DNA of 20,000 bases from an uncultured virus (IMG/VR IMGVR_UViG_3300037400_005412) (taxonomy: Duplodnaviria > Heunggongvirae > Uroviricota > Caudoviricetes), in the IMG/VR virus record IMGVR_UViG_3300037400_005412. The stretch is one strand, 5' to 3'. Shown here one piece after another: positions 4,417 to 20,000 of this stretch; within the stretch, counting starts at the first letter, position 1; each line of letters begins with the position of its first letter. Made by a program: the position numbers and the translations under genes. The notes under the pieces are model-generated. The model was given only the letters and a program-made list of their open reading frames with translations. It was not told the DNA's origin and did no database searches.

Positions 4417-4462
4417 CATCCCCGCAGGTAAGCGAGCACCTTTGTTAAAAATTTAACAAACA

Positions 4463-5841: not shown

Positions 5842-5915
5842 GGACTTAAAAAAGTCCTTTTTCTTTTTTTATTTTAGGGCTTGACAAATCGCCCGGGCAA
5901 TGCTATAATGTAATC

Positions 5916-5959
5916 ACAGGTTGAGGGAAACCGCACTCGGGCAGGAGAGGGGAGAGACT
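5916..5959 (+). ncRNA. Candidate small RNA, GAGGGA-loop family, copy 1
   Basis: Promoter 5881-5909; GGTT-GAGGGA-AACC hairpin; no ORF before the next promoter. Confidence 0.6.
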
Positions 5960-6070
5960 ATCCAAAAGGTAACAAAAGAAAAACAAAAAATTTCTAAAAA
6001 TAACTCTTGACATTCGTCCGGACTTGTGGTATTATAATACCAGAAAGAGAAAAGAAAGGAAGTAAAAAAA

Positions 6071-6406
6071 ATGAAAAAGACAATAAAGTATGTGGTAGTA
6101 AGACTTACTGTTCCCGAGGATGTCAAGAATTATCATGGCTATTACATTCATACTTATGCTTATAAATCTGGAAATCATGATTCTGTCGTTGAGTATTGCC
6201 ACAAGGTAAAAAGCCAAAAGGGTTATAAAAATGGCACAAGCTATAAATGGTATGTAATGACTGAACATCAGGCACTTGAAGAATCTATCAGGCTTCACAA
6301 ATGGCAGGAAGAAAAATTAAACAAGGATTTAGAAAGGCGCTTTCCCATTCGTTATTGTGAACAAACCGCAAGAGAAGAACTTGCCGAAATGATGAGTGCA
6401 AGATAA
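6071..6406 (+). CDS. Hypothetical early protein, 111 aa
   Basis: Promoter 6007, RBS, TAA followed by a bidirectional terminator. Confidence 0.85.
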   Translation: MKKTIKYVVVRLTVPEDVKNYHGYYIHTYAYKSGNHDSVVEYCHKVKSQKGYKNGTSYKWYVMTEHQALEESIRLHKWQEEKLNKDLERRFPIRYCEQTAREELAEMMSAR

Positions 6407-6434
6407 AAAAGGTTGAGCAATCAACCTTTTTTTT
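6406..6434. terminator. Bidirectional intrinsic terminator
   Basis: AAAAAGGTTGA-gcaa-TCAACCTTTTT with flanking A and T runs. Confidence 0.8.
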
Positions 6435-6473
6435 AATGCAAAGAACCGAACACTCTCGCAGGCGGTCCGAAAA

Positions 6474-6502
6474 ATTATACCATACCAGTAGCAAAAAGTC
6501 AA
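6474..6502 (-). promoter_or_regulatory. Antisense promoter driving a short ORF-less transcript toward the 6406-6434 terminator
   Basis: TTGACT (6502-6497), 17 bp, TG-n-TATAAT (6479-6474). Confidence 0.65.
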
Positions 6503-6621
6503 GAAGAAATTTCGCACAAAATAGCATAAAACTGAACGTCCCGATTTGTGCACTTTGACTATTGACACCGGGCTATTTATTTGCTATAATGAAGCCACAA
6601 AAGGAAAAGGAGATAAAGAAA

Positions 6622-6930
6622 ATGATCAACATTAGAAGCATCCTAAAACTGGCTGAAAATGACGGCCTGACTCTTAAAGCTGGTAAGCCCATCACTTACA
6701 AGAGTGGTTGGCAGGTTGCCACCGAGGGCGTAGAGTGCCACACCGCAAGAGAAGCGATCAATGCGGTTAAGGCTTACAGCGGGAACTGTGGCGTGTGGTT
6801 TGCTGGCGGTATCTACTACATTGACAAAAGCCACCGCGTGAACACTAAACGCGAAGCACTGGAAATTGGCAAGACACACAATCAGATTTCTGTGTTGGGC
6901 TGGCGTAAAATGGCTTTAGCGTATTGCTAA
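6622..6930 (+). CDS. Hypothetical early protein, 102 aa
   Basis: AAGGAG RBS, ATG 6622 (the ORF-track start 6562 is the TTG of the -35 element). Confidence 0.85.
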   Translation: MINIRSILKLAENDGLTLKAGKPITYKSGWQVATEGVECHTAREAINAVKAYSGNCGVWFAGGIYYIDKSHRVNTKREALEIGKTHNQISVLGWRKMALAYC

Positions 6931-7033
6931 AGCCATTAAAATTTTTTTTGAAAAATTGAAAAAAATGCTTGACATTTTGCCCGGCTTGATATAATATACA
7001 ATCAGAAAGAGAAAAGAAAAGGAGATAATTAAA

Positions 7034-7225
7034 ATGTACATGATTCTTACTGCTGATACCGAAGAGACCATTGCTTCCACCAGATTTGAGGATGTAGCTA
7101 AAGTAATTGCTGATTCACTGCCTATCAAATGCGTTGTTCGGTATGCTGACATGGGCACTACAGTCTATTACAAAGCACCCGGTGCTAACTTCTTCTCTGC
7201 TAACGAAAAGCAGGAAGTGGCCTAA
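7034..7225 (+). CDS. Hypothetical protein, 63 aa (paralog of 19491-19673)
   Basis: Promoter and AAGGAG RBS; shares TIA..xFEDVA..IA..LP..CVVRY.D with the 19491 gene. Confidence 0.85.
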   Translation: MYMILTADTEETIASTRFEDVAKVIADSLPIKCVVRYADMGTTVYYKAPGANFFSANEKQEVA

Positions 7226-7521
7226 AAAGCCACTTCTTTTTTTTTTTTTTTTTTTTTTGGTATTGACATTTGCGTGCGCATGTGCTATAATAGAATTGGT
7301 GCGTTTCTTTCGTCCAGGGGCTGTGGCGCAGGTTACAATATAGTGACAAATTTTTGCGAGATGTTACAAGAAATTACCCGGACTTGCGGCGTCCTAAAAC
7401 TGGTTACAAAATAATTACAAATCAGTGACAAAAAGTTTTTTTAATTTTTTTGAAAAAATGCTTGACAAATGCGCCCGGCTGTGGTATATTATAATCACAA
7501 AAGGAAAGGAGATAAAAAGAA

Positions 7522-7743
7522 ATGAAAAAGATGTTTACTTATGACGTGGGTGGTTGGTTGTTCTGGGATACCGAGGCTTTCGGGAATGGCTGGAAAGCCG
7601 CAAAGGAAAAGGCCACCGCTCTCCACAGCGCGATCTATCGCACGGTCTATAATGGAGAGACTGAGCGCCGAGAGGTTTACTTTAAGGCTGGATGTTTCAA
7701 TGATGTTAAGTATGCCACCCCTGACAGCGTGATGATTTTCTAA
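7522..7743 (+). CDS. Hypothetical protein, 73 aa (paralog of 15781-15999)
   Basis: Promoter 7462 and RBS; shares EAFG..WK.A..KAT.LH..IYR.V...EV...GCF..V.YA.P..V.IF with the 15781 gene. Confidence 0.88.
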   Translation: MKKMFTYDVGGWLFWDTEAFGNGWKAAKEKATALHSAIYRTVYNGETERREVYFKAGCFNDVKYATPDSVMIF

Positions 7744-7844
7744 GGGATTAAAAAAATCCCTTAGAAAATTTAAAAAATGCTTGACAAACCGGTCAACTTG
7801 TGATATTATAATACCAGAAAGAGAAAGAAAGGAAGTAAAAAAAA

Positions 7845-8033
7845 ATGACTTACACAATTAGCAAGAATTTCAATGGAACTTACTCCATCCACCTTGGCGC
7901 CGACCTCTTTTACTCTTGGATTGATGAAGCGCCCACCTATGAAAAGGCAATAGAACTTGCGAGAACATACGCCGGAGAAAACGGCACAGTCCTCTATAAA
8001 GAAGACCTTTTCAAATCCGCCATTGAAATCTAA
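7845..8033 (+). CDS. Hypothetical early protein, 62 aa
   Basis: Promoter, RBS, terminator AAAAGAGAGCC-gcaa-GGCTCTTTT. Confidence 0.82.
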   Translation: MTYTISKNFNGTYSIHLGADLFYSWIDEAPTYEKAIELARTYAGENGTVLYKEDLFKSAIEI

Positions 8034-8105
8034 AAAGAGAGCCGCAAGGCTCTTTTTTTATAAAAAGTGCTTGACAAAACGCCCGGGCTATGATACAATA
8101 CAATC

Positions 8106-8153
8106 ACAGGCGGAGGGACGCCCCACGCGGGAAGTCGAGGGGAGAGACTGACT
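8106..8153 (+). ncRNA. Candidate small RNA, GAGGGA-loop family, copy 2
   Basis: Promoter 8071; GGCG-GAGGGA-CGCC hairpin; no ORF. Confidence 0.6.
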
Positions 8154-8288
8154 TAATAGTTACAAAATGGTAACAAAAAAGTTTTTTCAAAAAAATCAAA
8201 AAAAAGCTTGACAAAATGCCCGGGCTGTGCTATACTACAATCAGAAAGAGGGAAGGAAAACCCCAATAAACCAGAAAGGATGAATAAA

Positions 8289-8396
8289 ATGGAGTTTTAC
8301 AGTATGGAGCAGTTCGAGATCATGGGCGACCTGATGGAAGAATATCAGGAGTGGCTGGACTTTGAAGAGGACATGAAGTCCAATCCTTGGGGCTAA
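8289..8396 (+). CDS. Acidic peptide, 35 aa (paralog family A)
   Basis: MEFYSMEQFEIMGDLMEEYQEWLDFEEDMKSNPWG; promoter 8208, RBS, stop in hairpin loop. Confidence 0.8.
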   Translation: MEFYSMEQFEIMGDLMEEYQEWLDFEEDMKSNPWG

Positions 8397-8490
8397 AAAA
8401 GCCCCAAGGAAATTAAAAAAGTGCTTGACAAGTAAAACAAAGTATGATATAATAAAGGCATAAAAGGAAAAGAAAAGGAGAATTAAAAAA

Positions 8491-8775
8491 ATGAGTTACT
8501 TTATGGGAAATGGCCGCGCCGATACTTGCCGCCACAGCGATGAAGCCTACAAGGGCAAGGCGGTTGAAATGATGATTGACGTGCTGGAAGCCCGTGATGG
8601 TTTTGAACTTCGCAAGGCAAGCGACAGCACCGGCTCGGCGGCAAAGTTCCGCATTTTCTGGGATGGCGAGTGCATCAGCACCGTCTACAATGAAAAGGAA
8701 GCGCGGGCGCTGTTCAATGACTTTGCCCCAGCCCCCAAGCGCAAGGCTGGACGCCCCAAGAAGAATGCCGCATAA
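8491..8775 (+). CDS. Hypothetical early protein, 94 aa, basic C-terminal tail (KRKAGRPKK, AT-hook-like)
   Basis: Promoter, AAGGAG RBS, downstream terminator. Confidence 0.82.
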   Translation: MSYFMGNGRADTCRHSDEAYKGKAVEMMIDVLEARDGFELRKASDSTGSAAKFRIFWDGECISTVYNEKEARALFNDFAPAPKRKAGRPKKNAA

Positions 8776-9033
8776 GTTCCAAAAGAGAAAGAGTTAAAAA
8801 ACTCTTTCTCTTTTCTTTTGTGGGACGTGCGCCGCCCGGGTAAGCGAATCCTTTTAGCTGGAGTTAGCGCCGACTTACCCGACAGGCCCCGAGCTTTAAC
8901 ACAGTAAAGTGGTGAAGAATTTTGAGGCGATTTGCTTGTTAAAAACTTAACGATATTTTTTCCGAAAAAGGGCTTGACAAATGCCTCCGGGTGTGGTATA
9001 GTATAATCACAAAAGGAAAGGAGATAAAGAAAA

Positions 9034-9192
9034 ATGAAACGTGAACAGTATTACAAGAACAAGAGAACAGGCGAGCACACCGAAAGCCATAAACAAGCCA
9101 TGGAATGGTATCGGGCAAAGGATGAGATCGAAGTCTGGTATTATTCCGAAGTGTGCGGCGAATGGCTGTGCGGGGTTGAGTGGGTTTGGTAA
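9034..9192 (+). CDS. Hypothetical Trp-rich protein, 52 aa
   Basis: MKREQYYKNKRTGEHTESHKQAMEWYRAKDEIEVWYYSEVCGEWLCGVEWVW; promoter, RBS, stop in hairpin. Confidence 0.8.
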   Translation: MKREQYYKNKRTGEHTESHKQAMEWYRAKDEIEVWYYSEVCGEWLCGVEWVW

Positions 9193-9257
9193 AAATCCAC
9201 TCAACTTTTTTTGAAAAAGGGCTTGACAAATCGCCCGGGCTGTGATACTATACAATC

Positions 9258-9300
9258 ACAGGCGGAGGGACGCCCCACGCGGGGAGCCGAGGGGGGAGAG
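9258..9300 (+). ncRNA. Candidate small RNA, GAGGGA-loop family, copy 3
   Basis: Promoter 9223; GGCG-GAGGGA-CGCC hairpin; no ORF. Confidence 0.6.
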
Positions 9301-9409
9301 CGCGCTAAAAGTTACAAAAGAATGACAAAAAATTTTTTTGAAAAGTGCTTGACAAGTCCGGACATGTATGCTATAATGTAGTCACAAAAGAGAAAAGGAG
9401 ATAAAAAAA

Positions 9410-9586
9410 ATGACTTACGAAGAAATGTACGATCTGCTGGCCGATGTTCTCGGAATTGATGAAAATGCCCTTGATCTGGCTTTTGCCATTGGCGGATGTA
9501 ACGAAGAAACCGCCGAAAGAATTTTGTTCTACTACACTGGCTGGCATTCCTTTGAGGGCTGGCTGGGCGAACAGGAAGAGGACTGA
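9410..9586 (+). CDS. Highly acidic small protein, 58 aa
   Basis: MTYEEMYDLLADVLGIDENALDLAFAIGGCNEETAERILFYYTGWHSFEGWLGEQEED; promoter 9349, AAGGAG RBS. Confidence 0.85.
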   Translation: MTYEEMYDLLADVLGIDENALDLAFAIGGCNEETAERILFYYTGWHSFEGWLGEQEED

Positions 9587-9688
9587 AAGAGTCCTCTTTT
9601 GCCCGGGCAAAAGTTACAAAAGAAAGACATTGACAAATAAAATAAAGTATGGTATTATAATACCAGAAAGAACAAAGGAGATAAAAAA

Positions 9689-9880
9689 ATGAAAAACTAT
9701 AATAACATGAGCTGTGCTGAACTGCGGCGGCAACTGAACCAGATCGACAATGACCTGCGGAACTTCCCCACTATGAGCCAAATTGAAAAAAACCGCCTGA
9801 CCTATGAGCGGATGAAAGTCAACGGCATTCTGCGCCACAAGATCACAGAAATCCTTGATGAATGTGATGAAAAGGCTTGA
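9689..9880 (+). CDS. Hypothetical helical/coiled-coil protein, 63 aa
   Basis: Promoter 9630, RBS; the TGA stop lies inside the next TTGACA. Confidence 0.82.
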   Translation: MKNYNNMSCAELRRQLNQIDNDLRNFPTMSQIEKNRLTYERMKVNGILRHKITEILDECDEKA

Positions 9881-9937
9881 CAAATAAAACAAAGTATGCT
9901 ATAATAAAGGTACAAAAAAGAAAAGGAGAATAAAAAA

Positions 9938-10075
9938 ATGAAAAAGTTTGAAACCAAAATCACTCGTGATAATGCCGATGTAAAGTGCATTGTTGAAGCC
10001 ATTGATAAAGAACATGCAGCCCGCCGCTTCTTTGAGATTCTTGGAGAGCATGGCCTGAAAATCAAGGAACTGTAA
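9938..10075 (+). CDS. Hypothetical protein, 45 aa
   Basis: MKKFETKITRDNADVKCIVEAIDKEHAARRFFEILGEHGLKIKEL; promoter, RBS, stop hairpin plus T-run. Confidence 0.8.
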   Translation: MKKFETKITRDNADVKCIVEAIDKEHAARRFFEILGEHGLKIKEL

Positions 10076-10222
10076 AAAGTTCCTTGATTTTTTTATGCCA
10101 AAAATACTTTAAAAATTTTAAGTAAAAACCGCAAAAAATCTCTTGACAAATCGCCCGGTTTATGGTATTATAATACCAGAAAGAGGGAAGGAAAACCCCA
10201 CAAACCAGAAAGGAAAAGAAAA

Positions 10223-10414
10223 ATGTTTTATTGTTATGTTGGTGGTTATGATTGTTCTGCTGAGGTTATCCGCGAAGAAGGTTGGAAGTGTGAAGCGGTT
10301 TTCGCAACTTTGCAAGAAGCATTTGATTATTGTGAAGAACATGCTTGCTATGATGATACTGGTTGGATAGAACATAATGGAGATATTCGCCAATTCTTTG
10401 ATTGGGAACTATAA
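10223..10414 (+). CDS. Acidic Cys-containing small protein, 63 aa
   Basis: Promoter 10143, leader hairpin, RBS, downstream terminator. Confidence 0.82.
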   Translation: MFYCYVGGYDCSAEVIREEGWKCEAVFATLQEAFDYCEEHACYDDTGWIEHNGDIRQFFDWEL

Positions 10415-10500
10415 TCAAGAGCCAAAAAGACTCTTGATTTTTTTTAAAAAAAATTGAAAAAATGCTTGACAAATCGCCCGGGCAGTGCTATAATGTAATC

Positions 10501-10548
10501 ACAGGTTGAGGGAAACCGCACTCGGGCAGAAGAGGGGGAGGACTGACT
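10501..10548 (+). ncRNA. Candidate small RNA, GAGGGA-loop family, copy 4
   Basis: Promoter 10466; GGTT-GAGGGA-AACC hairpin; near-identical to copy 1. Confidence 0.6.
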
Positions 10549-10653
10549 TTAAGTTACAAAACAGTAACAAATAGTTCCAAAAGAAAATTGTTGACATAAT
10601 ACAGTTGACATGCTATAATAATACCAGAAGTTAAGAAAGAGAGGAAAAAAGAA

Positions 10654-10734
10654 ATGTATCAAACTGCTATTGCCGCCGTCCTTGTTATTGTCTTTGTTGT
10701 AGCTATTGCCGCAATTTATTTGAATAATTTATAA
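10654..10734 (+). CDS. Single-TM micropeptide, 26 aa
   Basis: MYQTAIAAVLVIVFVVAIAAIYLNNL; promoter 10591, GAGG RBS. Confidence 0.7.
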   Translation: MYQTAIAAVLVIVFVVAIAAIYLNNL

Positions 10735-10823
10735 AAAAGACTTGACAAGCCCGGATACTTGTGTTATACTACAATCAGAAAGCGGGAAGGAAAACCTGCA
10801 CAAACCAGAAAGGAAAAAAGAAA

Positions 10824-11144
10824 ATGCCGCCCATTGATATTAATAATCTTAGCTATCATGTCCGTATGGATAGAAAAGAAAGACTGGTACAAATTAAATC
10901 TATTGGAATTGGCGCCCCGATTGCTAATAAAGAAGAAACCAAAGATGGTCGAAAAGTTATGAAAACTCTCACTTCTACTGGAATAATGGTGATTAGAGCA
11001 GTAGAAAGTAACATGATTATTACCATGTATCTTGCTGATTTCGATCAAGCAGAAAAAATGTTTAGAAAACAGTATGGATTGAAACTTCCAAAAGACATCG
11101 GAAATAAAATTAAATTAAATAACATCATGTTCCCCGCTAATTAA
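10824..11144 (+). CDS. Hypothetical basic protein, 106 aa
   Basis: Promoter 10742, leader hairpin, AAAGGA RBS, ATG 10824. Confidence 0.82.
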   Translation: MPPIDINNLSYHVRMDRKERLVQIKSIGIGAPIANKEETKDGRKVMKTLTSTGIMVIRAVESNMIITMYLADFDQAEKMFRKQYGLKLPKDIGNKIKLNNIMFPAN

Positions 11145-11215
11145 TGCGGGGACTTGATTTTTATAAAAAAAAATAGTATAATAATTATAGAAAAATAAAT
11201 AAAGGAGGTTTTAAG

Positions 11216-11332
11216 ATGTCTTTAGAGCTTGCCCGGGCATTGCTTGTGATTGCAAAATATTGCGCTTCTTGTGATGATTGTAGCGCTTGCCCACTTCATG
11301 ACATTTGCGGAAAAATTCCACTTGAATGGTAA
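11216..11332 (+). CDS. Cys-rich micropeptide, 38 aa (CxxCxxCxxCP...C)
   Basis: MSLELARALLVIAKYCASCDDCSACPLHDICGKIPLEW; AAGGAGGT RBS. Confidence 0.78.
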   Translation: MSLELARALLVIAKYCASCDDCSACPLHDICGKIPLEW

Positions 11333-11527
11333 TTAACGCAAAGAGCCGACATTCCCAAGGTCGGTTCGCACTTTCACACGCTAAAGGGCTGAAGAATTTT
11401 CGGCGGGCAAGGCAAGGCAAAAATAATTTATATTTTTTTCCTAAAACCTATTGACATTTTAGAACCTATGTGCTATACTATAATTGTTCCAAGAGAGAAT
11501 AACAAAATAAAAAAGGAGAATAAAACT

Positions 11528-11710
11528 ATGTACAATGTGCGCTTTACTGACACTATTCACGGTGAGACTGAGGAAAACTTTGACAGCTATGATGCAGCCA
11601 TGGAGTACTGGAATGACTATGCTGATACTGAGTCTTGTGTGGCTGGGGTTATGATGGATTTGGATAATTGCGAAATTATCTGGAACTTTGACGATCGAGA
11701 GGTCGAATAA
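11528..11710 (+). CDS. Highly acidic small protein, 60 aa
   Basis: Promoter 11451, AAGGAG RBS, ATG 11528. Confidence 0.85.
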   Translation: MYNVRFTDTIHGETEENFDSYDAAMEYWNDYADTESCVAGVMMDLDNCEIIWNFDDREVE

Positions 11711-11787
11711 AAAAATATAAAAAGGGGCTTGACAAACAAGCCCCTTTGTGCTATTATAATACCAGAAAAGGAAAGGGGAATAAAAAA

Positions 11788-11967
11788 ATGACTACTTACA
11801 GAGAAAACCTGCTTGACCGCATGATCCACATTTACGGGATGGAAGCTCCAATCGTAATTCAGTTTGCCGGAATGTGTGAAAGATATGAGAATAACGCTTT
11901 TAATGATGACATTTTGCGGCTGTTGGTGGAAGCTCACGAAGCTGACCCAGTTTTTGAGGAAGATTAA
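11788..11967 (+). CDS. Acidic small protein, 59 aa
   Basis: Promoter 11729, RBS, stop in hairpin. Confidence 0.82.
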   Translation: MTTYRENLLDRMIHIYGMEAPIVIQFAGMCERYENNAFNDDILRLLVEAHEADPVFEED

Positions 11968-12073
11968 AAATCTTCCTCAAATGCCCGGGCGGAAAAGTTA
12001 CAAAAGAAAGACATTGACAAATAAATCATGATGTGTTATAATAAAGGCGCAAAAAGAAAAGGAGAACAAAACA

Positions 12074-12511
12074 ATGAATAAAGTTTTTAAGAAAATAGAC
12101 GCATGGACTGAGCCTGTACGCGATTGGTGGTTTTGGAATTGGGAAGTTGCTGTAACAATAATTTTTGTAGTGGCTATCCTTATTGCGGTTGCTGTGTTTG
12201 GTCTATGGGCTTCTAGTGCTTTCTATGAAGAAGTAGAAAATTATGACTTCACCGCACAAGTGTATGATAAAGACCATTATACTACTCATTCAGTAAGTTA
12301 TATTACTTCTGGTAAATCTCGCATCCCTGTCTACCATACCCATCACCATTACAAAATAATGTGGGAAGATGTGGGAGAACGTGGGGCGCTTGAAATCGGT
12401 GAAGATCATTATAATTTAATTAAAATAGGTGATTTTGTAAATATTCATTGTTCTGTGAGAGCAGATAAGCAAGGGGAATTACATTATTATTATAGTTTCA
12501 AGGGATATTAA
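12074..12511 (+). CDS. Membrane-anchored protein, 145 aa (one TM helix followed by a soluble beta-rich domain)
   Basis: Promoter 12014, RBS, hydrophobic VAVTIIFVVAILIAVAVFGLWA segment. Confidence 0.85.
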   Translation: MNKVFKKIDAWTEPVRDWWFWNWEVAVTIIFVVAILIAVAVFGLWASSAFYEEVENYDFTAQVYDKDHYTTHSVSYITSGKSRIPVYHTHHHYKIMWEDVGERGALEIGEDHYNLIKIGDFVNIHCSVRADKQGELHYYYSFKGY

Positions 12512-12575
12512 AATCCCTTGAAATTTTTTTCAAAAAGGGCTTGACAAATCGCCCGGGCTATGGTATATTATAGTC

Positions 12576-12624
12576 ACAGGCGGAGGGACGCCACACTCGG
12601 GTAGTAGAGGGGGAGGCTTTTTTT
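12576..12624 (+). ncRNA. Candidate small RNA, GAGGGA-loop family, copy 5
   Basis: Promoter 12541; GGCG-GAGGGA-CGCC hairpin; ends in a T-run. Confidence 0.6.
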
Positions 12625-12760
12625 ATTTGGAGAATGTGTGGGAGGTTGCCCGGGCGGCGGCAAAAGAAAAACAAAAAGTTACAAAAGAAAAACATTGACA
12701 AGTAACCAGAAGTATGGTATATTATAATCACAAAAGGAAAAGAAAAGGAGATCAAAAAAA

Positions 12761-13039
12761 ATGTCTGGATTTTATGAACTTAAATGTGTTGATACTCTTG
12801 GTTTTTCTGTCTACTATTACTTTTATAGCCCTCGCGCTATCCGCAATCCAAAAGGCGCTTTGAAATCTGGTTATGCCCCTGATAAAGTGCGGCTTTTGGT
12901 AGAAGACCGAGAAGACACCCCTTGCGGGATTCGCTTTATGCACAATCCTTTTGAATACATCTATTTGAAGTATTTCAAAAAAACTGGGACTTTCAAGTTT
13001 AGCGGTTATCGTCTTGATTGGGAAAAAGAGGAATTTTAA
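12761..13039 (+). CDS. Hypothetical early protein, 92 aa
   Basis: Promoter 12695, AAGGAG RBS, stop hairpin. Confidence 0.85.
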   Translation: MSGFYELKCVDTLGFSVYYYFYSPRAIRNPKGALKSGYAPDKVRLLVEDREDTPCGIRFMHNPFEYIYLKYFKKTGTFKFSGYRLDWEKEEF

Positions 13040-13131
13040 AAAAAATTCCTCTTTTTAAAAAAAAGGCTTGACAAATACATCCGGATGTGATATATTATAA
13101 TTACAAAAGGAAAAGAAAAGGAGAATAAAAA

Positions 13132-13320
13132 ATGTTTATTGTTATTCTTAAAATTATCGCTGTTATTGCTGTCATTCGTTTCGTTGGTGGTGTGATCGAA
13201 ATAGTGATGAAAAATTTGTTTCTTGAAATTGAGTCAAGACGTTATGACAACGACCCTCAGCGCAAACAGAAGATCGAAGAAATGCGAAAAAGAATTGAAG
13301 AAAATTCAAAAAGGGCTTGA
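13132..13320 (+). CDS. Small membrane protein, 62 aa
   Basis: N-terminal hydrophobic helix and charged tail; TGA overlaps the next -35. Confidence 0.82.
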   Translation: MFIVILKIIAVIAVIRFVGGVIEIVMKNLFLEIESRRYDNDPQRKQKIEEMRKRIEENSKRA

Positions 13321-13375
13321 CAAAATAGCCCCTTTATGATACAATACCAATAGAAACAGAAAAGGAGAAATAAAA

Positions 13376-13495
13376 ATGATGTATGACATTTATCCCTGTG
13401 ATCTCGATCCCTTTGGCGAATGCCCGAAGCGGTGTCAGGACTGTGCCCATTGTGTGGGCTGGTTCATGGATGAACCAGAGGACGAAGAAAATTAA
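13376..13495 (+). CDS. Cys-rich acidic micropeptide, 39 aa
   Basis: MMYDIYPCDLDPFGECPKRCQDCAHCVGWFMDEPEDEEN; promoter 13317, AAGGAG RBS. Confidence 0.78.
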   Translation: MMYDIYPCDLDPFGECPKRCQDCAHCVGWFMDEPEDEEN

Positions 13496-13538
13496 AAAAG
13501 GTCTTGACAGGACGCAAATCCTGTGATATAATAAAGAT

Positions 13539-13810
13539 ACAAAAGGGGAAGGAAAACCCCACAAACCTCTGAGCTGGCCCAGCGAAATGGTACAGAGTGA
13601 GCATGAACACTTTGTCAAAAAATGCCGTGAACTGTGAATGAGAAATAGCAGGTGAGGTTAAGGTCTTACAGCACACCGCCGACCAAGACGCGAAAGGGCG
13701 GGAGTGGGAGAGCAAACTCCCAAACAGAACACAAAACCGTGAGAGCGAGAGAGACACGAAATAACCGCTCAGGATGGCAACCTTAAACCCCCGCTGTGAG
13801 TGGGGTTTTA
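13539..13810 (+). ncRNA. Candidate ~270-nt structured non-coding RNA, family not recognised
   Basis: Promoter 13504-13532 and terminator ~13785-13810; no RBS-led ORF; several local and long-range complementary segments. Confidence 0.6.
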
Positions 13811-13884
13811 AATAACCAAAAAAAGGTCTTGACAGGATGTAAATCCTGTGCTATAATAAAGACACAATAAAGGAGATAAAAACA

Positions 13885-13965
13885 ATGAAAGCACGACCGC
13901 CGCCCACAAGGGCATGTGATTGGATTACTAGTAATTAGATGGTAATGTATAGGAGAATAGACTAA
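13885..13965 (+). CDS. Micropeptide MKARPPPTRACDWITSN(*/Q)MVMYRRID: 17 aa in code 11 or 26 aa in code 15
   Basis: Promoter 13829, AAGGAG RBS, ATG 13885, in-frame TAG at 13936, TAA at 13963 overlapping the next ATG. Confidence 0.55.
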
Positions 13966-14188
13966 TGAATAGAATCAGAGACGAGACGTAAAACCTGATA
14001 ATGATAGTATAATGATGGAATAGAATGATAGTAATAAAATAGAATAAAGGCAAATGTCAAGAGGCGGCTCGGTTGGAGGTTGGGAGTAGCCGAAAAAATT
14101 TTTCAAAGAAATTTGAAAAACCCTCTTGACAAATCGCCCGAGCTGTGGTAATATATAATCACAAAGAGAAAACAAGGAGGAAAACAAA

Positions 14189-14299
14189 ATGACTAATGAC
14201 TACTGGGAAGCACACGAAGCCGAATGGCTCGCCGCTCAGGAGTGTATGGAATGGCTCCTGTTTGAGGCCGACATGGCCACAGACCCCTACCGGAATTAA
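14189..14299 (+). CDS. Acidic aromatic-rich peptide, 36 aa (paralog family A)
   Basis: MTNDYWEAHEAEWLAAQECMEWLLFEADMATDPYRN; AAGGAGG RBS; stop in hairpin. Confidence 0.85.
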   Translation: MTNDYWEAHEAEWLAAQECMEWLLFEADMATDPYRN

Positions 14300-14388
14300 A
14301 ATCCGGTAGGGAAAAATAAAAAAAGTAGTTGACAAATCCAAAAGTATATGATATAATTAAGACACAAAGAGAAAAGGAGATAAAAAAA

Positions 14389-14721
14389 ATGCTTAATAGT
14401 ACTCGTAAAGTTCTTGAACAGGTTGCCGCCGACTGGATGGGCAAAGACCGCGACTGGGAGACTTGGGAACATATGTTCGATTCTCGTGGACACAATATGT
14501 TTGGGACTGTTTATGCTATATCCTATTCTACTTTCCGTAAATATTCGACTTTAGAAAAAGTTGAAACCTTTGTTCCTGTGACTGTTGAAGAACTTGTCGA
14601 TCTGCTTAATGACTGCGCTGGGAATGACCTCTATGGGGCTTCTTGGGAGTATGTCATGCGGGACGGCTTGCCGTATGAACGGGTAATCACCTATCGGCTT
14701 GTAAAAATTAATTTCGATTAA
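14389..14721 (+). CDS. Hypothetical early protein, 110 aa
   Basis: Promoter 14329, AAGGAG RBS, ATG 14389. Confidence 0.85.
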   Translation: MLNSTRKVLEQVAADWMGKDRDWETWEHMFDSRGHNMFGTVYAISYSTFRKYSTLEKVETFVPVTVEELVDLLNDCAGNDLYGASWEYVMRDGLPYERVITYRLVKINFD

Positions 14722-14793
14722 AAGCAAAAGGGGCTTGACAAACCCAAGCCCCTATGGTATAATACAATCAGAAACAACAAGGAGGATAAAAAA

Positions 14794-14934
14794 ATGTACG
14801 AATACACAATCCGTTATTTGGAAAATGGTGAAGAAGATTACCTTTATGGATACAGCGAACGCGATCTGATTAAGCGCTATCCTGAAATCCCCCGCAGTAT
14901 GTATGTGATTGTAAGCCGCGAGTATATAGACTAA
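14794..14934 (+). CDS. Tyr-rich small protein, 46 aa
   Basis: MYEYTIRYLENGEEDYLYGYSERDLIKRYPEIPRSMYVIVSREYID; AAGGAGG RBS; terminator follows. Confidence 0.8.
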   Translation: MYEYTIRYLENGEEDYLYGYSERDLIKRYPEIPRSMYVIVSREYID

Positions 14935-14964
14935 ACCCCACCACAAGTAGGGTTTATTTTTTTT

Positions 14965-15093
14965 TGCATAAATACGCGCGCACTATGAATGAATATTCAT
15001 TCATTATAAATAAATAATTATGCATTCGGCGCACCGTCTTCCAGCCGCCGCGCAGCGTGTTTCTATTATACCACATGCCGGCAATTTTGTCAA
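14965..15093. promoter_or_regulatory. ARG-box-like palindromes plus an antisense promoter
   Basis: TGAAT-N4-ATTCA and TAAAT-N4-ATGCA at ~14986-15025; - strand TTGACA (15093-15088), 17 bp, TATAAT (15070-15065). Confidence 0.6.
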
Positions 15094-15252
15094 GCATTTT
15101 TTATTCATCAAAGTGCACAAATTTTTTTCCTGAAATGAATAATAAATAATTACCCAGGAGGGATGAATAAAAAATTTTTTTCAAAAAAGTATTGACAAAT
15201 GCCCGGTCATTTGCTATAATCAATATAGAAATTAAGAGAGGGGAACAAAAAA

Positions 15253-15687
15253 ATGTACACTATCACTTATACCAATATCATTACCTGTAAGACCAATGGC
15301 GATACCATCCAGCAGACCGTTAACTTTTATCATACTGGTAAGATCGAACGCCACGACAGCCGCCCTTGGTATGAGGAAAGCGACATTGAAGAAATTGCTG
15401 GAAGCGTTAAGTCCAGCGGCTTCAGCCTTGCTGACGGTCGCACGAATTGCGGCGAGACTCTGGAGGAGAAGTGGAGCGACTTCCGCGCCCGCACTGCTTC
15501 CCGTGTGTTCATTTATGTGACCGCTGAAAATATTGGGTACTATATGGACATTGATGAGTTTGAAAGTTTTGTGAAAACTTGGTGCTATATTTCCCGCGAA
15601 TCCGCAAAAAATGGCGGACGTTCCAAGGTCAGATGTAAGCATGAAAGCCAGAAAATGCGTAACTGGCTGGCACATAGAGCGGCTTAA
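15253..15687 (+). CDS. Hypothetical early protein, 144 aa
   Basis: Promoter 15192, GAGGGG RBS, stop hairpin. Confidence 0.85.
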   Translation: MYTITYTNIITCKTNGDTIQQTVNFYHTGKIERHDSRPWYEESDIEEIAGSVKSSGFSLADGRTNCGETLEEKWSDFRARTASRVFIYVTAENIGYYMDIDEFESFVKTWCYISRESAKNGGRSKVRCKHESQKMRNWLAHRAA

Positions 15688-15780
15688 AAAAAGTCGCTCT
15701 AAAATGAAAAAAAGTATTGATAAGCTCGGTTATATTTGTTATAATGAATCCAGAAAGAGATAAGAAAGGAAGTAAAAAAA

Positions 15781-15999
15781 ATGAAAAAGTTCGTTTATCA
15801 GGTAGCAGGTTTTGAGTATATCGGTTATGAGGCTTTCGGCGCTGCGTGGAAGCAGGCCAGAGCCAAGGCAACTGAACTCCACGTAGGTATTTATCGTCTG
15901 GTTATCAAGGGCGATATCATCAAGCAGGAAGTGCTGGTAAATGGCGGGTGCTTCCTCACCGTGGAGTATGCCAAGCCCGAGCAGGTGCTCATCTTTTAA
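15781..15999 (+). CDS. Hypothetical protein, 72 aa (paralog of 7522-7743)
   Basis: Promoter, RBS, clear paralogy. Confidence 0.88.
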   Translation: MKKFVYQVAGFEYIGYEAFGAAWKQARAKATELHVGIYRLVIKGDIIKQEVLVNGGCFLTVEYAKPEQVLIF

Positions 16000-16034
16000 G
16001 GGACTTGAATAAAGTCCCATTTTTTTTGACCATT

Positions 16035-16610
16035 TATACAATGAATATTCATTCATTTTGAATGAAACTTTATGCATTTGGCGCGTCCTCTTCCATCGGC
16101 CGCAGCCGTATTTCACTTTCACACGCTAAAGCGATAAATCGTTAGCGATTTAGCGCGCTAAAGTGGTCCAAAAATATTTTCCTATAACTTTAACACGCTA
16201 AAGTGGTAGTGTGTTAAAGTGCGCCAAAAAAGTTTTTTCGCACTTTAACACACTAAAGTATTAAATAGTTACAATTTGGTAACAACCGATGACGACCGGT
16301 TTCACTTCACTACGCTAAAGCGCTAAATTGAGAAAGAATACAGGGAGTAATCACTTTAGCACGCTAAATCCTTAAACCTACTGGACTAATAGACTTTACC
16401 CCACTAAAGCGATGAAGTTTGTTAGTTAATTAACAAACGAAGTTCATAATTTATTTACAAAAATTTAACATTTATGAAGATTGTTAATTATTTATCAAGA
16501 GATTACAAAATAATTACAATTGTTCCCACTTTGTTTCTTTTACACGGACTTTTTGTGCATTTTGTACAAGAGGAATTGCTTTTTCATTCTTTTTTTTGTG
16601 CAACATTACC
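16035..16610. promoter_or_regulatory. Non-coding island 2 of operator-like repeats
   Basis: ARG-like boxes at 16042-16078. CTTTA-N6-TAAAG-type at 16116, 16148, 16188, 16243, 16305, 16354, 16394. WalR-like at 16268, 16502. Rex-like at 16419, 16481. Confidence 0.75.
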
Positions 16611-16693
16611 ACTTGCAAACCGGTTCAAGATATGCTATATTATACTTGTCCAAAGGGACAAGAGAAAAACAGATTGAAAGGGAGAACAAAAAA

Positions 16694-17179
16694 ATGAAAG
16701 AGAACATCCTTGCTTACATTATGTCCACCTACATGCGCCTTGCCTACACCCCCGCCTATATCTTCGGCTATGCTATTAAGGGCACCATATACGCCGCGCG
16801 CGTCACAAATGCGGACGCCATTCTGCCCTACATTGCCACACTTGACCGCGCAAGCTCCAAGAATGGCGGCACATATAGCGCCAAATATAAGCCCAATATG
16901 GAAAAATGGGCAATCATCATGAGCGCCGCCGTAGAAATCCGCCCTATCTGCTCTGTTGACTATATGGAACAGCGCAAGGTTGAAACTCACCGCAATCGTG
17001 GACAGCTCTTTGAAGATATGGTCGCCGCCGCTTTCGATATGAAGCAGGTAGACAGCAAAAATGCCAAGTTTACCAAGTGCGGCGATGTGATTGCCAAGGA
17101 CGGCACTCATTATCAAGTCAAGTACAACAAAGCCACATTCAGTGACGAGCGCACGCTCCACAACCTTATGGGAGCTTGA
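16694..17179 (+). CDS. 161-aa protein with a C-terminal PD-(D/E)xK-like nuclease motif (putative nuclease)
   Basis: GGGAG RBS, ATG 16694; RGQLFEDMV...GDVIAKDGTHYQVK fits the E...D...QxK pattern. Confidence 0.65.
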   Translation: MKENILAYIMSTYMRLAYTPAYIFGYAIKGTIYAARVTNADAILPYIATLDRASSKNGGTYSAKYKPNMEKWAIIMSAAVEIRPICSVDYMEQRKVETHRNRGQLFEDMVAAAFDMKQVDSKNAKFTKCGDVIAKDGTHYQVKYNKATFSDERTLHNLMGA

Positions 17180-17312
17180 TAGGATAAACCCTATCTCCCC
17201 CATATGGCCCGGGCGCCAAAAAAAATTTGCCACATATGAAAATTCCTTATTGACAAACATTAAAAAATTTGGTAAAATATATACACAAAGAAAAAGAAAG
17301 GAAATGATAAAA

Positions 17313-17750
17313 ATGAAGACTATTTGGTTTGATATGGACGGCACTATCGCTAATCTTTACGGCGTTGAAAATTGGCTTCCGATGGTTCGAGCAAGCGACC
17401 CTACTCCCTATATGATCGCACGTCCTCTTGTAAACCTGTCAGCATTGGCTCGTGTTCTTAATCGACTTCGCCGCGAAGGATATGAAATTGGCGTGATTAG
17501 CTGGCTTTCTAAGACTGGTACTCCCGCATATAACGCAGAAGTGACCGCCGCTAAATATGCGTGGCTTGCCAAGCACCTGCCCTCTGTGGACTTTGACGAA
17601 ATCCACATTGTTCCATATGGCACTCCCAAACAGGTATACGCGCATAGCGCTGATGATATTCTGTTTGACGATGAAGCCAAGAATCGGGATAGCTGGACTG
17701 GCACAGCGTATGATGTAGATAACATCATTTCTGTTCTGTGCTCCCTCTAA
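17313..17750 (+). CDS. HAD-superfamily hydrolase, 5'(3')-deoxyribonucleotidase-like, 145 aa
   Basis: Motif I IWFDMDGTIANLY, K..WL..HLP, motif IV ILFDD; promoter 17250. Confidence 0.85.
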   Translation: MKTIWFDMDGTIANLYGVENWLPMVRASDPTPYMIARPLVNLSALARVLNRLRREGYEIGVISWLSKTGTPAYNAEVTAAKYAWLAKHLPSVDFDEIHIVPYGTPKQVYAHSADDILFDDEAKNRDSWTGTAYDVDNIISVLCSL

Positions 17751-17872
17751 AAAAAAGGGGGGGGCGCAGTTCAGCCCGGGCAATCAGCTTGTTAAAAAAA
17801 TAACTTTTAAAACCCCTATTGACAAACACCAAGAGTAAGAGTATAATAGACTTACAGAAAGGGGATAGAGTA

Positions 17873-18256
17873 ATGACTAATGCTGATGAAATCCGCATCA
17901 ATCTTTATATGAAGAATCTTAATATTTCGAGAGAAGAAGCAATTGCGCTGATGCGGGATGAAGAAGAAGATAATCTTCCCGAACTTACCACCAAACAGCG
18001 CAAGGTAGAAAAGGAAATGCGGCAGGCCGACCGCAAAAAGGAAACTGCTCCACGCAAACGAGAACGGAAACCCGATAATGACAAGCGTTTCCTCATTGAT
18101 ACTTTCATTTGGGCTTTGACTACTGGCGAAGAAACCAATGGAGATAATGTCAATGCTGAAAATGTCATTATCACCAAACCAGAAAGAGAAATTGAATTTG
18201 ATTATAATGGAAACCGTTACCGCCTTGTGTTAATGAAACCGAGAAAGGAAAAGTAA
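17873..18256 (+). CDS. Hypothetical charged protein, 127 aa
   Basis: Promoter 17819, AAGGGG RBS, ATG 17873. Confidence 0.85.
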   Translation: MTNADEIRINLYMKNLNISREEAIALMRDEEEDNLPELTTKQRKVEKEMRQADRKKETAPRKRERKPDNDKRFLIDTFIWALTTGEETNGDNVNAENVIITKPEREIEFDYNGNRYRLVLMKPRKEK

Positions 18257-18259
18257 AAA

Positions 18260-18523
18260 ATGAAATTTGTTAAACTTGATTCTGACCATCGCGCTGTTGC
18301 TCTTTCTACTTTGAGATCAGGTGCAGTTTTTCTCTATAAAGAGAAAATTGGAATGGTGGCTTCCAGAAATGGGAGAGACTTTCCACTTGATTTATCTACT
18401 GGACAGGAATTTACTACCTATGAAGGTAGGGAATGGATGCCTCATTCTTCTTTTCCTTTCCTGCCTCCTGATACTCTTGTAATTCCTGTGGATGCTACGC
18501 TTTCTTATAAAATTAAACCTTAA
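18260..18523 (+). CDS. Hypothetical protein, 87 aa
   Basis: Co-transcribed with the previous gene; AAGGA RBS; hairpin TAACCCACT..AGTGGGTTA follows. Confidence 0.8.
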   Translation: MKFVKLDSDHRAVALSTLRSGAVFLYKEKIGMVASRNGRDFPLDLSTGQEFTTYEGREWMPHSSFPFLPPDTLVIPVDATLSYKIKP

Positions 18524-18636
18524 CCCACTATAACAGTGGGTTAAAGCCCGGACAAATTAATTTACATAAAAACTATTGACAATTTTATTTTTGTATGCTA
18601 TACTATGATTACAAAAACAGAAAAGGAGAAATAAAA

Positions 18637-18711
18637 ATGGCTTTAATGATTGTTGGTTCTGCAATTGGTCTTGGACTTGCTATTCTGGTTGCTTGGCTCT
18701 GTGATTATTAA
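18637..18711 (+). CDS. Single-TM micropeptide, 24 aa
   Basis: MALMIVGSAIGLGLAILVAWLCDY; promoter 18576, AAGGAG RBS. Confidence 0.72.
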   Translation: MALMIVGSAIGLGLAILVAWLCDY

Positions 18712-18811
18712 GAGCCAAGTCACCCAGACAAAATGCCTTGTTAAAAAAATATCAAAATAAAATTCAGAATGCCCTCTTGACAAAATAAGTTAAGTATGGT
18801 ATAATGAATAC

Positions 18812-18900
18812 AGTTAAGAGGACAGAGCCGAAAGACTTTAAGATTGACCGAATCTGGTTGAAATAACCTAGTAGTTAGAGGATAAAAAATCAATCAAATG
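18812..18900 (+). ncRNA. Candidate small structured RNA upstream of the tRNA
   Basis: Promoter 18777-18805; no ORF; consecutive hairpins AGAGCC-GAAA-GACTTT, AGATT-gaccg-AATCT, GGTT-gaaat-AACC. Confidence 0.4.
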
Positions 18901-18953
18901 CCCTCTTGACAAACTCCAAAAAGTATGCTATAATATAAATGTAAATAAGACAT

Positions 18954-19040
18954 GCGTGGATGCTGGAACTGGTATACAGATTGGTCTTAAAAACCAATGC
19001 CCAAATGGGATTGGGGGTTCGATTCCCCTCCCACGCACCA
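18954..19040 (+). tRNA. tRNA-Leu (anticodon TAA), CCA encoded
   Basis: Acceptor GCGTGGA/CCCACGC (A7-C66 mismatch), D-loop GG, anticodon arm TTGGT-CTTAAAA-ACCAA, long variable arm, GGGGG-TTCGATT-CCCCT T-arm, ACCA end; own promoter at 18906. Confidence 0.93.
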
Positions 19041-19179
19041 ATACCTTCCTTCTCTCCTTTCTTTCTTTCTCTTTTGGCAAAGCGTCCTTTTTAGGGCGCT
19101 TTTGTCATTTTTGGTTGAAAATTTTAAAAAAATATTATAAAATTATTATAGAAAATTAAAGAAAAGGAATTGATAAAAA

Positions 19180-19428
19180 ATGATTGTTACTATTAAAGAC
19201 CAGAAGAAAGAATTCAATAATCACATTGCGGAGCTCGTAGCCCTTTGCCCGGGCAAAACCCAGGTGGAACTTTTTCATGAGTTTATGGCTAATGAAATGT
19301 TTAATTGTTCTGTTGATGAGAACTATTTTTATGAGTTTACTTTTGCTTTTGAAGAGTTCCTGTATTTTAATTATTGTGTAAATCCTGAGAATTTTAAATA
19401 TTTTGATTTAGATAGATTTTATTTTTAA
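19180..19428 (+). CDS. Hypothetical Phe/Tyr-rich protein, 82 aa
   Basis: Promoter near 19114, AAGGA RBS. Confidence 0.8.
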   Translation: MIVTIKDQKKEFNNHIAELVALCPGKTQVELFHEFMANEMFNCSVDENYFYEFTFAFEEFLYFNYCVNPENFKYFDLDRFYF

Positions 19429-19490
19429 AAAACACTTGACATCCTCCACCCTCTGTGCTATAATCATTATAGAAAGAGAGGTTGAGAGAT

Positions 19491-19673
19491 ATGTACTTTA
19501 TAATGGAAAAAGAAACTGAAATTACGATAGCATTAAGTCACTTTGAGGATGTGGCAAATCTTATCGCTGCAACTCTCCCTTGTTCTTGTGTTGTCCGGTA
19601 TGTTGATTTGAATAGCATTAATTGTAGTAGCAATAAATGCTTCTTCAAAAAAGAAAATAAAGAAATTGCTTAA
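19491..19673 (+). CDS. Hypothetical protein, 60 aa (paralog of 7034-7225)
   Basis: GAGGT RBS, ATG 19491, paralogy. Confidence 0.82.
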   Translation: MYFIMEKETEITIALSHFEDVANLIAATLPCSCVVRYVDLNSINCSSNKCFFKKENKEIA

Positions 19674-19687
19674 AGGAGATAATAAAA

Positions 19688-20000
19688 ATGGACATTAGAA
19701 ACATGCCTACCGAAGCTGCTTATTATGAATTTGTGGTGGTAATTCCCAATGCTGACCATTATACCTTTCTTGGAATGTATGCTAATGGACACGAAGCTGA
19801 AAAAGCCGCTCTTGAATACGGCGGAATTGTGATTCACAATGTGCGTATTCAAGGCCATCAGGAATCAAAGCCTAAAGAAAAGTATTATATTTTTAGTGGG
19901 GTATGGTCTTGGGGATGTTGGGCTGTTGATGAAGAAGACGCCCGCAAACAGTTTGATGATGCTGATTTAATGAGCGATGAAATAAACATCGACTGTGACC
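19688..20000 (+). CDS. Hypothetical protein, partial (runs off the window)
   Basis: AAGGAG RBS, ATG 19688, MDIRNMPTEAAYYEFVVV..., open to the end of the window. Confidence 0.8.
   Translation, partial: MDIRNMPTEAAYYEFVVVIPNADHYTFLGMYANGHEAEKAALEYGGIVIHNVRIQGHQESKPKEKYYIFSGVWSWGCWAVDEEDARKQFDDADLMSDEINIDCD

Follow-up and report, generated by a model that had tools for sequence, protein, structure and literature searches.

The bar minigenes of bacteriophage λ are two-codon open reading frames (ORFs; ATG ATA stop) behind a ribosome-binding site (RBS), and their effect depends on the last tRNA. Dual-function small RNAs, such as SR1/SR1P, RNAIII/hld and SgrS/SgrT, also encode a small peptide. In B. 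subtilis, a ribosome stalled at the 5' end acts as a roadblock that stabilises a long downstream RNA, according to the sections of PMC3997798 drawn on here. We describe a short transcription unit of the leader-peptide, minigene or dual-function-RNA kind, found in a 20,000-nucleotide (nt) stretch of the uncultured Caudoviricetes record IMGVR_UViG_3300037400_005412 (the window; coordinates refer to it, + strand unless stated), which is part of the early-gene array of a TAG-recoded bovine-gut phage. The unit carries two micro-ORFs, MKARPPP (ORF1) and MNRIRDET (ORF2), followed by a TAG-rich block and a GC-rich 3' element. From sequence comparison, we tentatively favour the reading that it is a conserved early transcription unit in which the RPPP motif would park a ribosome near the 5' end and MNRIRDET would be the product. 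So far, it is known only from TAG-recoded phages of one narrow clade, sampled in bovine-gut and related metagenomes.

The window was compared with 10 contigs (11 sequences in all). In the window, the unit opens with an early promoter at 13829-13857, which agrees with the consensus at 12 of 12 positions (TTGACA at 13829-13834, a 17-nt spacer containing the palindrome ACAGGA..TCCTGT, and TG-n-TATAAT at 13852-13857) and is kept in 10 of the 11 sequences. ORF1 follows at 13885-13938 (MKARPPPTRACDWITSN, ending with TAG at 13936-13938), preceded by the RBS AAGGAG (13870-13875), 9 nt 5' of the ATG and invariant in 10 out of 10 sequences. ORF2, MNRIRDET plus TAA, occupies 13965-13991 and starts within a TAATG overlap at 13963; its RBS, AGGAG (13951-13955), also lies 9 nt 5' of the ATG. 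Two further mini-ORFs, MIV and MME, start at 14001 and 14012. An earlier note, made from the letters of the window, had given the promoter, the RBS, ORF1 with an in-frame TAG at 13936 and mini-ORFs at 13965, 14001 and 14012, and all of these coordinates hold.

The flanks of the unit were 89.5% identical to the window in one relative (L147) and about 85% in another (L002). The unit as a whole was conserved like its surroundings, and internally very unevenly: variable columns numbered 2 of 21 in ORF1 codons 1-7, 14 of 42 in the ORF1 tail, 2 of 17 in the RBS region of ORF2, 5 of 27 in ORF2, 16 of 24 at 13992-14015, 4 of 31 at 14016-14046, 10 of 16 at 14047-14062 and 6 of 42 at 14084-14125.

The RBS, ATG and in-frame TAA of ORF2 were kept in all 14 copies present across the 11 sequences, and the RBS is TATAGGAGAA in every one of the 11 first copies and TGAGGAAAAA in all three second copies. 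Within codons 1-8 (ATG-AAT-AGA-ATC-AGA-GAC-GAG-ACG-TAA in the window, stop included), four sites varied, all at third positions and all synonymously, with six distinct changes. Only 12 of the 63 single changes possible in codons 2-8 are synonymous, and the chance of six out of six is about 5×10−5 under uniform substitution; that of four variable sites all falling at third positions is 35/5985 = 0.006. These figures, like the one given below for ORF1, are hand arithmetic on the aligned copies. The two AGA codons, 3 and 5, were invariant, and the last sense codon used all four Thr codons. A hairpin between ORF2 and 14000-14008 was considered as a cause of this pattern and rejected: it showed one compensatory change, in L147, and was only 78.6% paired in the larger set.

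In four relatives, ORF2 has a long form, MNRIRDETKTF/I; the loop of a weak hairpin (AAAACC-TTTTAA-GGTTTT), with a T run after it, contains the stop. In three of these four genomes (L148, L155 and L160), the ORF2 module of about 90 nt is doubled; neither copy is disrupted, and a separate GAGG ribosome-binding site precedes the second. One contig, L156, lacks the promoter of the unit and ORF1 and retains the RBS of ORF2, ORF2, the A/T block and the 3' element. A promoter of the same type is present in L156, where its transcript, an ORF-less, GC-rich RNA about 300 nt long, continues directly into the RBS and ORF2.

MKARPPP was kept in all 10 sequences having the 5' part. Codons 1-7 (13885-13905) are the sole conserved part of ORF1, with two changes, both synonymous in Pro codons (CCG to CCA, CCC to CCT); the triple proline, encoded by CCG CCG CCC at 13897-13905, is present in 10 of 10. 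Beyond it the frame ends variously, at TGA in codon 11 (five sequences), at TAA in codon 9 after a 1-nt deletion (L160), at TAG in codon 18 (three, including the window) or at TAG in codon 23 after a 1-nt insertion (L155), giving lengths of 8, 10, 17 or 22 residues. The core K-A-R-P-P-P is not R-A/G-P-P, and it contains RxPP with x = P. In the passages of PMC12992588 used here, Bacillota proteomes are depleted of RxPP motifs and RAPP-type stalls are resistant to EF-P; RPPP and ARPP have no occurrence in the main text of that source. Because its core is ARPPP and only three residues precede the motif, ORF1 is not a member of the RAPP family. The earlier note would have been refuted by a lack of conservation, which did not occur: MKARPPP is retained in 10 of 10 sequences and MNRIRDET in 14 copies, and the unit does not appear to be a decayed gene.

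From their sequence patterns, MKARPPP and MNRIRDET behave like selected, translated micro-ORFs, and for this reason a translation-level reading appears reasonable. The promoter and RBS cassette would load ribosomes onto a micro-ORF of which only MKARPPP is selected. At the RxPP/triple-Pro motif the ribosome would pause or be lost, and codons, frame and stop after PPP would for that reason be free to drift. A ribosome held at ORF1 would protect the downstream RNA, as a Bacillota-type 5' roadblock, and the output of the unit would depend on the capacity of the host to translate Pro runs. Next come one or two modules, each made of an RBS, an ORF of 8-11 codons under purifying selection and an A/U/G-rich tail of decayed ATGAATAGAAT copies; behind the modules lie the invariant GC-rich element and, beyond it, the A/T tracts belonging to the next promoter. 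The MNRIRDET peptide, free or as a nascent chain, would most likely be the product. Translation, stalling, the roadblock effect and the activity of the peptide are what we infer from these patterns. A more specific proposal, that MNRIRDET is a true early product under purifying selection (bioactive octapeptide or nascent chain) gated by MKARPPP sensing EF-P or proline supply, seems to us possible and rather doubtful; if true, few selected genes known from viruses would be as small as ORF2.

Several points weigh against a parked ribosome and a peptide product. Stalls at PPP are normally relieved by EF-P. In the portion of PMC12992588 used here, RAPP arrest needs the adjacent N-terminal region, and only three residues precede RPPP in ORF1. 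The two synonymous changes of ORF1 are weak evidence, with a chance of about 0.07 by hand count, and codons 1-7 could be conserved as RNA instead. In ORF2, the variable sites recur every 6 nt and coincide with the first base of YAG triplets, and a protein binding NAG triplets could yield the same pattern of variation. The block at 14016-14046 is conserved as nucleotides and not as a reading frame, which argues that part of the unit works as RNA or DNA beyond what the micro-ORFs explain. No terminator-like site was found on the + strand between 13805 and 16000; RNA of the unit may run on into the 36-amino-acid (aa) gene downstream. The RNA-library data, from four runs, consist of contigs, which within the unit cover just 14021-14123 and come from a relative. 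Finally, every homologue is a close one (85-93% identical), which makes the sample narrow; it is biased too, as words of 21 and 17 nt from the 3' element found all homologues except L002.

That sample was assembled as follows. A HAD-like protein encoded 3.4 kb downstream led to 18 IMG/VR loci, of which one, L002, has the unit. L147 was fetched by a 17-nt word, the first 17 nt of the GC-rich 3' element. A 21-nt word of this element, run against metagenome contigs, gave 13 stretches, 9 of them true homologues, including L002's own contig; L149, L152, L154 and L157 were dropped, as they share only the 21-nt search pattern. The invariance of the 3' element in the alignments (14063-14092, GGCGGCTCGGTTGGAGGTTGGGAGTAGCCG) is therefore partly by construction, 21 nt of it being the search pattern; the element is also present in L002, which was found independently of that pattern. 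No match was obtained by blastn of 13600-14400 against 50,697 phage records, and no relative by an IMG/VR scan with a 110-aa neighbouring protein. A 23-nt pattern gave no match in IMG/VR, the relatives differing from it by 2 nt, and a 15-nt GC-rich pattern was unspecific (at least 120 stretches, with L023 as sole true homologue). With a pattern for ORF2, only the two known contigs were recovered from IMG/VR; in genome contigs, its match in an Acholeplasmataceae metagenome-assembled genome lay inside a longer gene and was rejected as chance.

The earlier note had drawn attention to nine TAG triplets in about 115 nt of C-poor sequence, and this was confirmed. They start at 13929, 13936, 13950, 13958, 13970, 14005, 14021, 14029 and 14040 (span 13929-14042), and the stretch 13925-14055 has the composition A62 C8 G28 T33. 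Dinucleotide shuffles gave 4.77±1.57 TAG, with 18 of 2000 reaching nine, and mononucleotide shuffles 3.3±1.7, with 5 of 2000; TAA (9 against 7.7±1.8) and TGA (5 against 4.9±1.2) were not enriched. The unit is the sole place in 3501-19700 with at least six TAG per 131 nt, the mean over 1607 sliding windows being 0.96. The claim that it is the only TAG-containing unit of the early region also stood, in the sense that it alone ends in TAG among 38 parsed promoter-RBS-start units (4081-19491; 30 end in TAA and 7 in TGA). Nine promoter-like matches without an RBS and start by the pattern were left out of these 38, and a parsed match at 2519 lies outside the early region.

Seven of the nine TAG triplets are ATAG and five are ATAG[A/T]A[A/T], and the nine are spread 3/3/3 over the reading frames. 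In ORF2, the TAG arises where the codons AAT and AGA meet, and most TAGs lie within ATAGAAT, that is, the AAT-AGA codons of MNRIRDET and decayed repeats of them. Copies of ATAGAAT number three in the window and six in L002; among the 20 sequences scanned for clusters of it, namely the window and 19 loci, just three have them. In long forms, the block 14016-14046 opens with ATGAATAGAAT, the same word as in ORF2, and in the window GAATAGAAT is repeated within the block (repeat family D5). By these repeats, the region is built of one module that recurs in copies both whole and decayed, and the TAG richness looks like a by-product of the codon pair AAT-AGA and its repeats.

The earlier note had taken the TAGs as signs of a device that senses or promotes the code switch, either through suppressor read-through coupled to the minigenes, or by a UAG-rich RNA or minigenes titrating RF1 or tRNAs. 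The phage is indeed TAG-recoded, a relative has a tRNA with anticodon CTA, the unit is the only early one ending in TAG, and TAG, unlike TAA or TGA, exceeds dinucleotide expectation. TAG richness is also kept as a property, with 7-13 TAGs per unit in short forms and 15-17 in long forms. The invariant AGA codons 3 and 5 of ORF2 point the same way, in that AGA codons close to a start are able to mimic a minigene in E. coli (PMC2490762, in the sections used here). However, the TAG positions mostly turn over: only four columns, including 14021, 14029 and 14040, are TAG in all 11 sequences, and one TAG common to the 10 relatives is absent from the window, so that of the conservation asked for in that note that of RPPP was found and that of the TAG positions mostly was not. 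ORF1 stops at TGA or TAA before the TAG in 6 of 10 sequences, and TAG read as Gln reaches the TAA-ATG of MNRIRDET only in the window and L148 (2 of 10); with its tail and stop varying in this manner, neither the in-frame TAG of ORF1 nor the read-through coupling is conserved. In the TGA-ending short forms, no conserved ORF uses TAG. Within the proposed chain of coupled minigenes, the start of MIV is not conserved either; two of the seven short forms, L159 and L153, have no ATG there. Titration of a tRNA is further disfavoured by the last sense codon of ORF2, which varies over all four Thr codons, so that no single tRNA would be trapped, and by the relative's own tRNA-Arg(TCT), tRNA-Ile(TAT) and tRNA-Pro(TGG). 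No release factor, Pth or EF-P gene was found in the 239,565-bp genome of the relative. A role in the code switch is thus very improbable; of the earlier proposal, the translation-level device remains plausible and its tie to the code switch does not.

The genome referred to is G001, the record to which L002 belongs (239,565 bp, rated complete by CheckV). It is TAG-recoded too, its homologue of protein P0001 having seven in-frame TAGs, and it carries 40 tRNA genes, among which the one with anticodon CTA lies at 201,768. Between 110 and 170 kb, one of its strands has about 75 consensus promoters. G001 has a single copy of the unit, and the MKARPPP and MNRIRDET motifs were found there only in the unit. 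Family searches of G001 found no TRAP (PF02081), HutP (PF09021), CsrA, RF-1, Pth or EF-P N-domain.

Downstream of ORF2, a variable spacer (13992-14015, 16 of 24 columns varying) holds MIV and the start of MME (14012-14023). It is followed by the A/T/G-rich, C-free block 14016-14046 (GGAATAGAATGATAGTAATAAAATAGAATA), in which three TAGs are invariant. When TAG is read as Gln, a 35-aa frame starts at 14024; it was rejected, as 1-nt insertions or deletions interrupt it in L147, L153 and L158. This nucleotide-level conservation (4 of 31 columns varying, with the frame broken) is what a sponge would show, namely a non-coding early RNA whose (U/G)AG-rich stretch soaks up a host or phage RNA-binding protein, the micro-ORFs being incidental or stabilising. 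The absence of C from the block, the little predicted structure of the transcript, the position of the variable bases of ORF2 at the first bases of YAG triplets, and the ORF-less structured early RNAs adjoining the unit, one of them seen in RNA libraries, all fit. TRAP binds (G/U)AG repeats with 2-3-nt spacers, and HutP binds UAG repeats with 4-nt spacers. The start-to-start distances of the TAGs (7, 14, 8, 12, 35, 16, 8 and 11 nt) are irregular and do not match either spacing; the relative's genome has no TRAP, HutP or CsrA gene, the unit has no Rfam match, and each of the 14 copies of ORF2 keeps its RBS, ATG and stop. We regard a sponge as unlikely, though it has more in its favour than a code-switch device.

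Searches for RNA structure and targets gave little. Rfam and tRNA searches found nothing relevant at E up to 10 in 13480-14200, and the fold of the transcript was not better than those of shuffles (z −1.72, 11 of 200 shuffles as good). A candidate hairpin at 13924-13946 (ATTACTA / T(A/G)GTAAT), with the TAG of ORF1 in its loop, has seven pairs that are 100% paired in the alignment of 10 sequences, with three one-sided changes to G-U; it is weakly supported, as no two-sided change was seen. Across the unit, one pair showed a two-sided change, and 158 of 500 shuffles did as well. A pairing of the Pro codons with the 3' element was rejected: its paired positions are invariant, and its energy of −27.1 kcal/mol compares with a mean of −21.5 (standard deviation 6.2) for 810 other 62-nt stretches, many of which are better. 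As to attenuation, no terminator-like site was found on the + strand in 13805-16000, and a weak 6-bp hairpin with a T run is present at the ORF2 stop in the long forms. Antisense or repeat targets sought in the 239,565-bp relative amounted to chance matches of 13-16 nt and to RBS and leader words of up to 23 nt.

The 3' side of the unit leads into A/T tracts, which we take to be UP-element-like, and the next promoter (together 14093-14154), which drives a 36-aa gene at 14189-14299. This promoter, at 14126, is present downstream of the unit in 11 of 11 sequences, and a gene of 36-38 aa in 10 of 11; the 36-aa protein had no family match. The A/T block and the GC-rich element of the unit could form a DNA element, either an upstream activating, curved or operator region for the 14126 promoter, or an iteron-type site, for example an origin activated by transcription. 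From the block to the −35 at 14126, downstream of it, the distance is about 80-110 bp, the region 14084-14125 is conserved (6 of 42 columns varying), ATAGAAT is clustered, and two tandem near-identical promoters precede the AT-rich stretch, the second copy of the promoter and leader cassette being at 13504 (63 nt, 84% identical). Yet such a role leaves unexplained the synonymous-only pattern and the kept RBSs of ORF2; the cumulative GC skew makes no turn at the unit, which is moreover single-copy in the 239.6-kb relative. We consider a DNA element improbable.

The drift of the ORF1 tail, with its insertions and deletions, and the partly decayed repeats would also be expected of debris, a remnant of a longer early gene plus slippage repeats between two useful promoters. 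Early genes are shuffled among relatives, and in L010 a 50-aa ORF ends with DWIITNTTYID-TAATG and is followed by ATAGAAT repeats. The likeness to L010 is not significant, however (score 32 against 23.8±4.0, with 16 of 300 shuffles reaching 32). Against debris stand also the promoter, both RBSs, MKARPPP, MNRIRDET and the two nucleotide blocks, which are kept at or above the baseline of the flanks, and the duplicated module, both copies of which are intact in three genomes. This origin has, in our view, about as little probability as a DNA element. Two ORFs on the minus strand (13975-14187 and 13928-14053) have no promoter and no RBS, and the long-form insertion interrupts both.

The window itself shows only short ORFs in the standard code; reading TAG as Gln restores long minus-strand genes at its left end. 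One of them (18-1256, eight in-frame TAGs) matches phrog_3314 and another (1374-2477, two in-frame TAGs) matches a PHROG annotated 'sigma factor'. A tblastn search with P0001 found relatives, 25-43% identical, in phAss-1, a gut phage that is TAG-recoded, and in large siphophages of Enterococcus, Geobacillus and Lactococcus; these correspond to the phAss-1- and EF1-like phages of PMC10607447, going by the part of that source used. Near-identical DNA occurs in 24 bovine-gut metagenome runs from 14 studies, the best run containing 0.91 of the sampled words.

The window has 121 promoter-like sites, compared with 56.7±6.5 in shuffles. Twenty-three are perfect TTGACA-17-TATAAT promoters, nearly all TG-extended, and the array, from about 3500 to 19700 on the + strand, is unusually regular: promoter, about 15 nt, AAGGAG, ATG, small ORF. 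Counted as near-consensus extended −10 promoters, there are about 45 on one strand in these 16 kb (3500-19700). Many of their spacers are palindromic (ACAGGA..TCCTGT, GCCCGGGC), and the −35 is often within a hairpin that could end the preceding transcript. A micro-unit at 4081-4168 consists of a perfect promoter, an RBS and a five-codon ORF, MTKNF-TAA, with the next promoter directly after it. A tRNA-Leu gene (anticodon TAA, 18954-19040) with its own consensus promoter at 18906 is placed inside the early region, and has a counterpart in G001 at 132,578. Some tiny early proteins are paralogous. The products of 5452-5565, 8289-8396 and 14189-14299, the last being the gene downstream of the unit, form one family of three 35-37-aa proteins with a core like xEAEWxxxxExxEWLxFEADMxxxPY, and further pairs are 7522/15781 and 7034/19491. 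None of the paralogous tiny early proteins scanned matched a PHROG, and a PHROG scan of eight neighbouring proteins gave a single weak match, of unknown function.

Other early units have no ORF. The one directly upstream, at 13504-13812, has the same promoter and leader as the unit under study and would give an RNA some 274 nt long; a canonical terminator is present at 13789-13805, and the minimum free energy has a z of −2.42, matched by 1 of 200 shuffles. L147 and L153 have this upstream unit with 90-92% conservation and L002 lacks it; it is without an Rfam match, and RNA-library contigs of 201 and 215 nt, from two runs of one study, lie wholly inside 13551-13775 with two differences each. 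Five more ORF-less, promoter-led units (5881-6006, 8071-8207, 9223-9348, 10466-10590 and 12541-12620) have a G-rich core of about 50 nt, ACAGGCGGAGGGACGCC...GAGGGG(G)AG, followed in four copies by GTTACAAAA/GTAACAAAA words. Units with this core are also present in L148, L150, L155, L159 and L160. The folds of this type of unit are mostly no better than those of shuffles (z −0.03 to −2.63). Yet another ORF-less unit, at 7263-7461, contains six GT[T/G]ACAA / ATTACAA words, like −35 hexamers. Further GC-rich ORF-less early transcripts were found beside the unit in L156 (1791-2385) and upstream of it in L147, L153 and L158; one type begins GTCAAGAGGGGTGA..CCCCCACCTGACTCGGCGG, and another is the one fused to the RBS and ORF2 in L156.

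If the micro-ORFs are translated, the unit would be a compact phage example of translation-level control in a Bacillota-type host, with a polyproline parking frame placed before a gene for a peptide of 8-11 residues. It belongs to a little-known early region with ORF-less RNAs, which automatic annotation would miss. It also illustrates that a local excess of TAG in a TAG-recoded phage need not concern the code switch.

Among described systems, the ermC leader and related 5' roadblocks share with the unit a strong RBS and a very short 5' ORF, the held ribosome protecting the RNA (PMC3997798, as far as covered). The erm stall, however, depends on a macrolide and acts on a hairpin that covers the erm start; in the unit, the impeding motif would be RPPP, no regulated hairpin was shown, and the downstream gene has its own promoter. 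The Salmonella mgtCBR and mgtA leaders, in the parts of PMC3641672 and PMC6460261 used, are short upstream ORFs with consecutive Pro codons that report EF-P or proline supply. They act through alternative stem-loops before one operon, whereas in the unit no terminator and no covarying alternative structure were found. With the RAPP/RGPP arrest peptides (ApdA, ApdP, SecM-like), the likeness is an Arg followed by prolines near the peptidyl-transferase centre (PMC12992588, in part); in contrast, the core of the unit is A-R-P-P-P, with only M-K-A before the motif, and no Sec or YidC gene lies downstream.

Like the λ bar minigenes, the unit is phage-borne and has RBS-led ORFs of few codons, and ATG-ATA words are present (PMC2490762, in the sections covered). 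Unlike them, its conserved ORFs have 7 or more and 8-11 codons and keep their peptide while the last codon differs between sequences; MIV and MIVIK, the short ATG-ATA ORFs, lack a kept RBS, and the three-codon MIV is not conserved. Dual-function RNAs resemble the unit in being short, strongly expressed transcripts that combine a small ORF with non-coding parts conserved as nucleotides. They differ in that no base-pairing target was found in the phage, and in that the peptides of the unit are far shorter.

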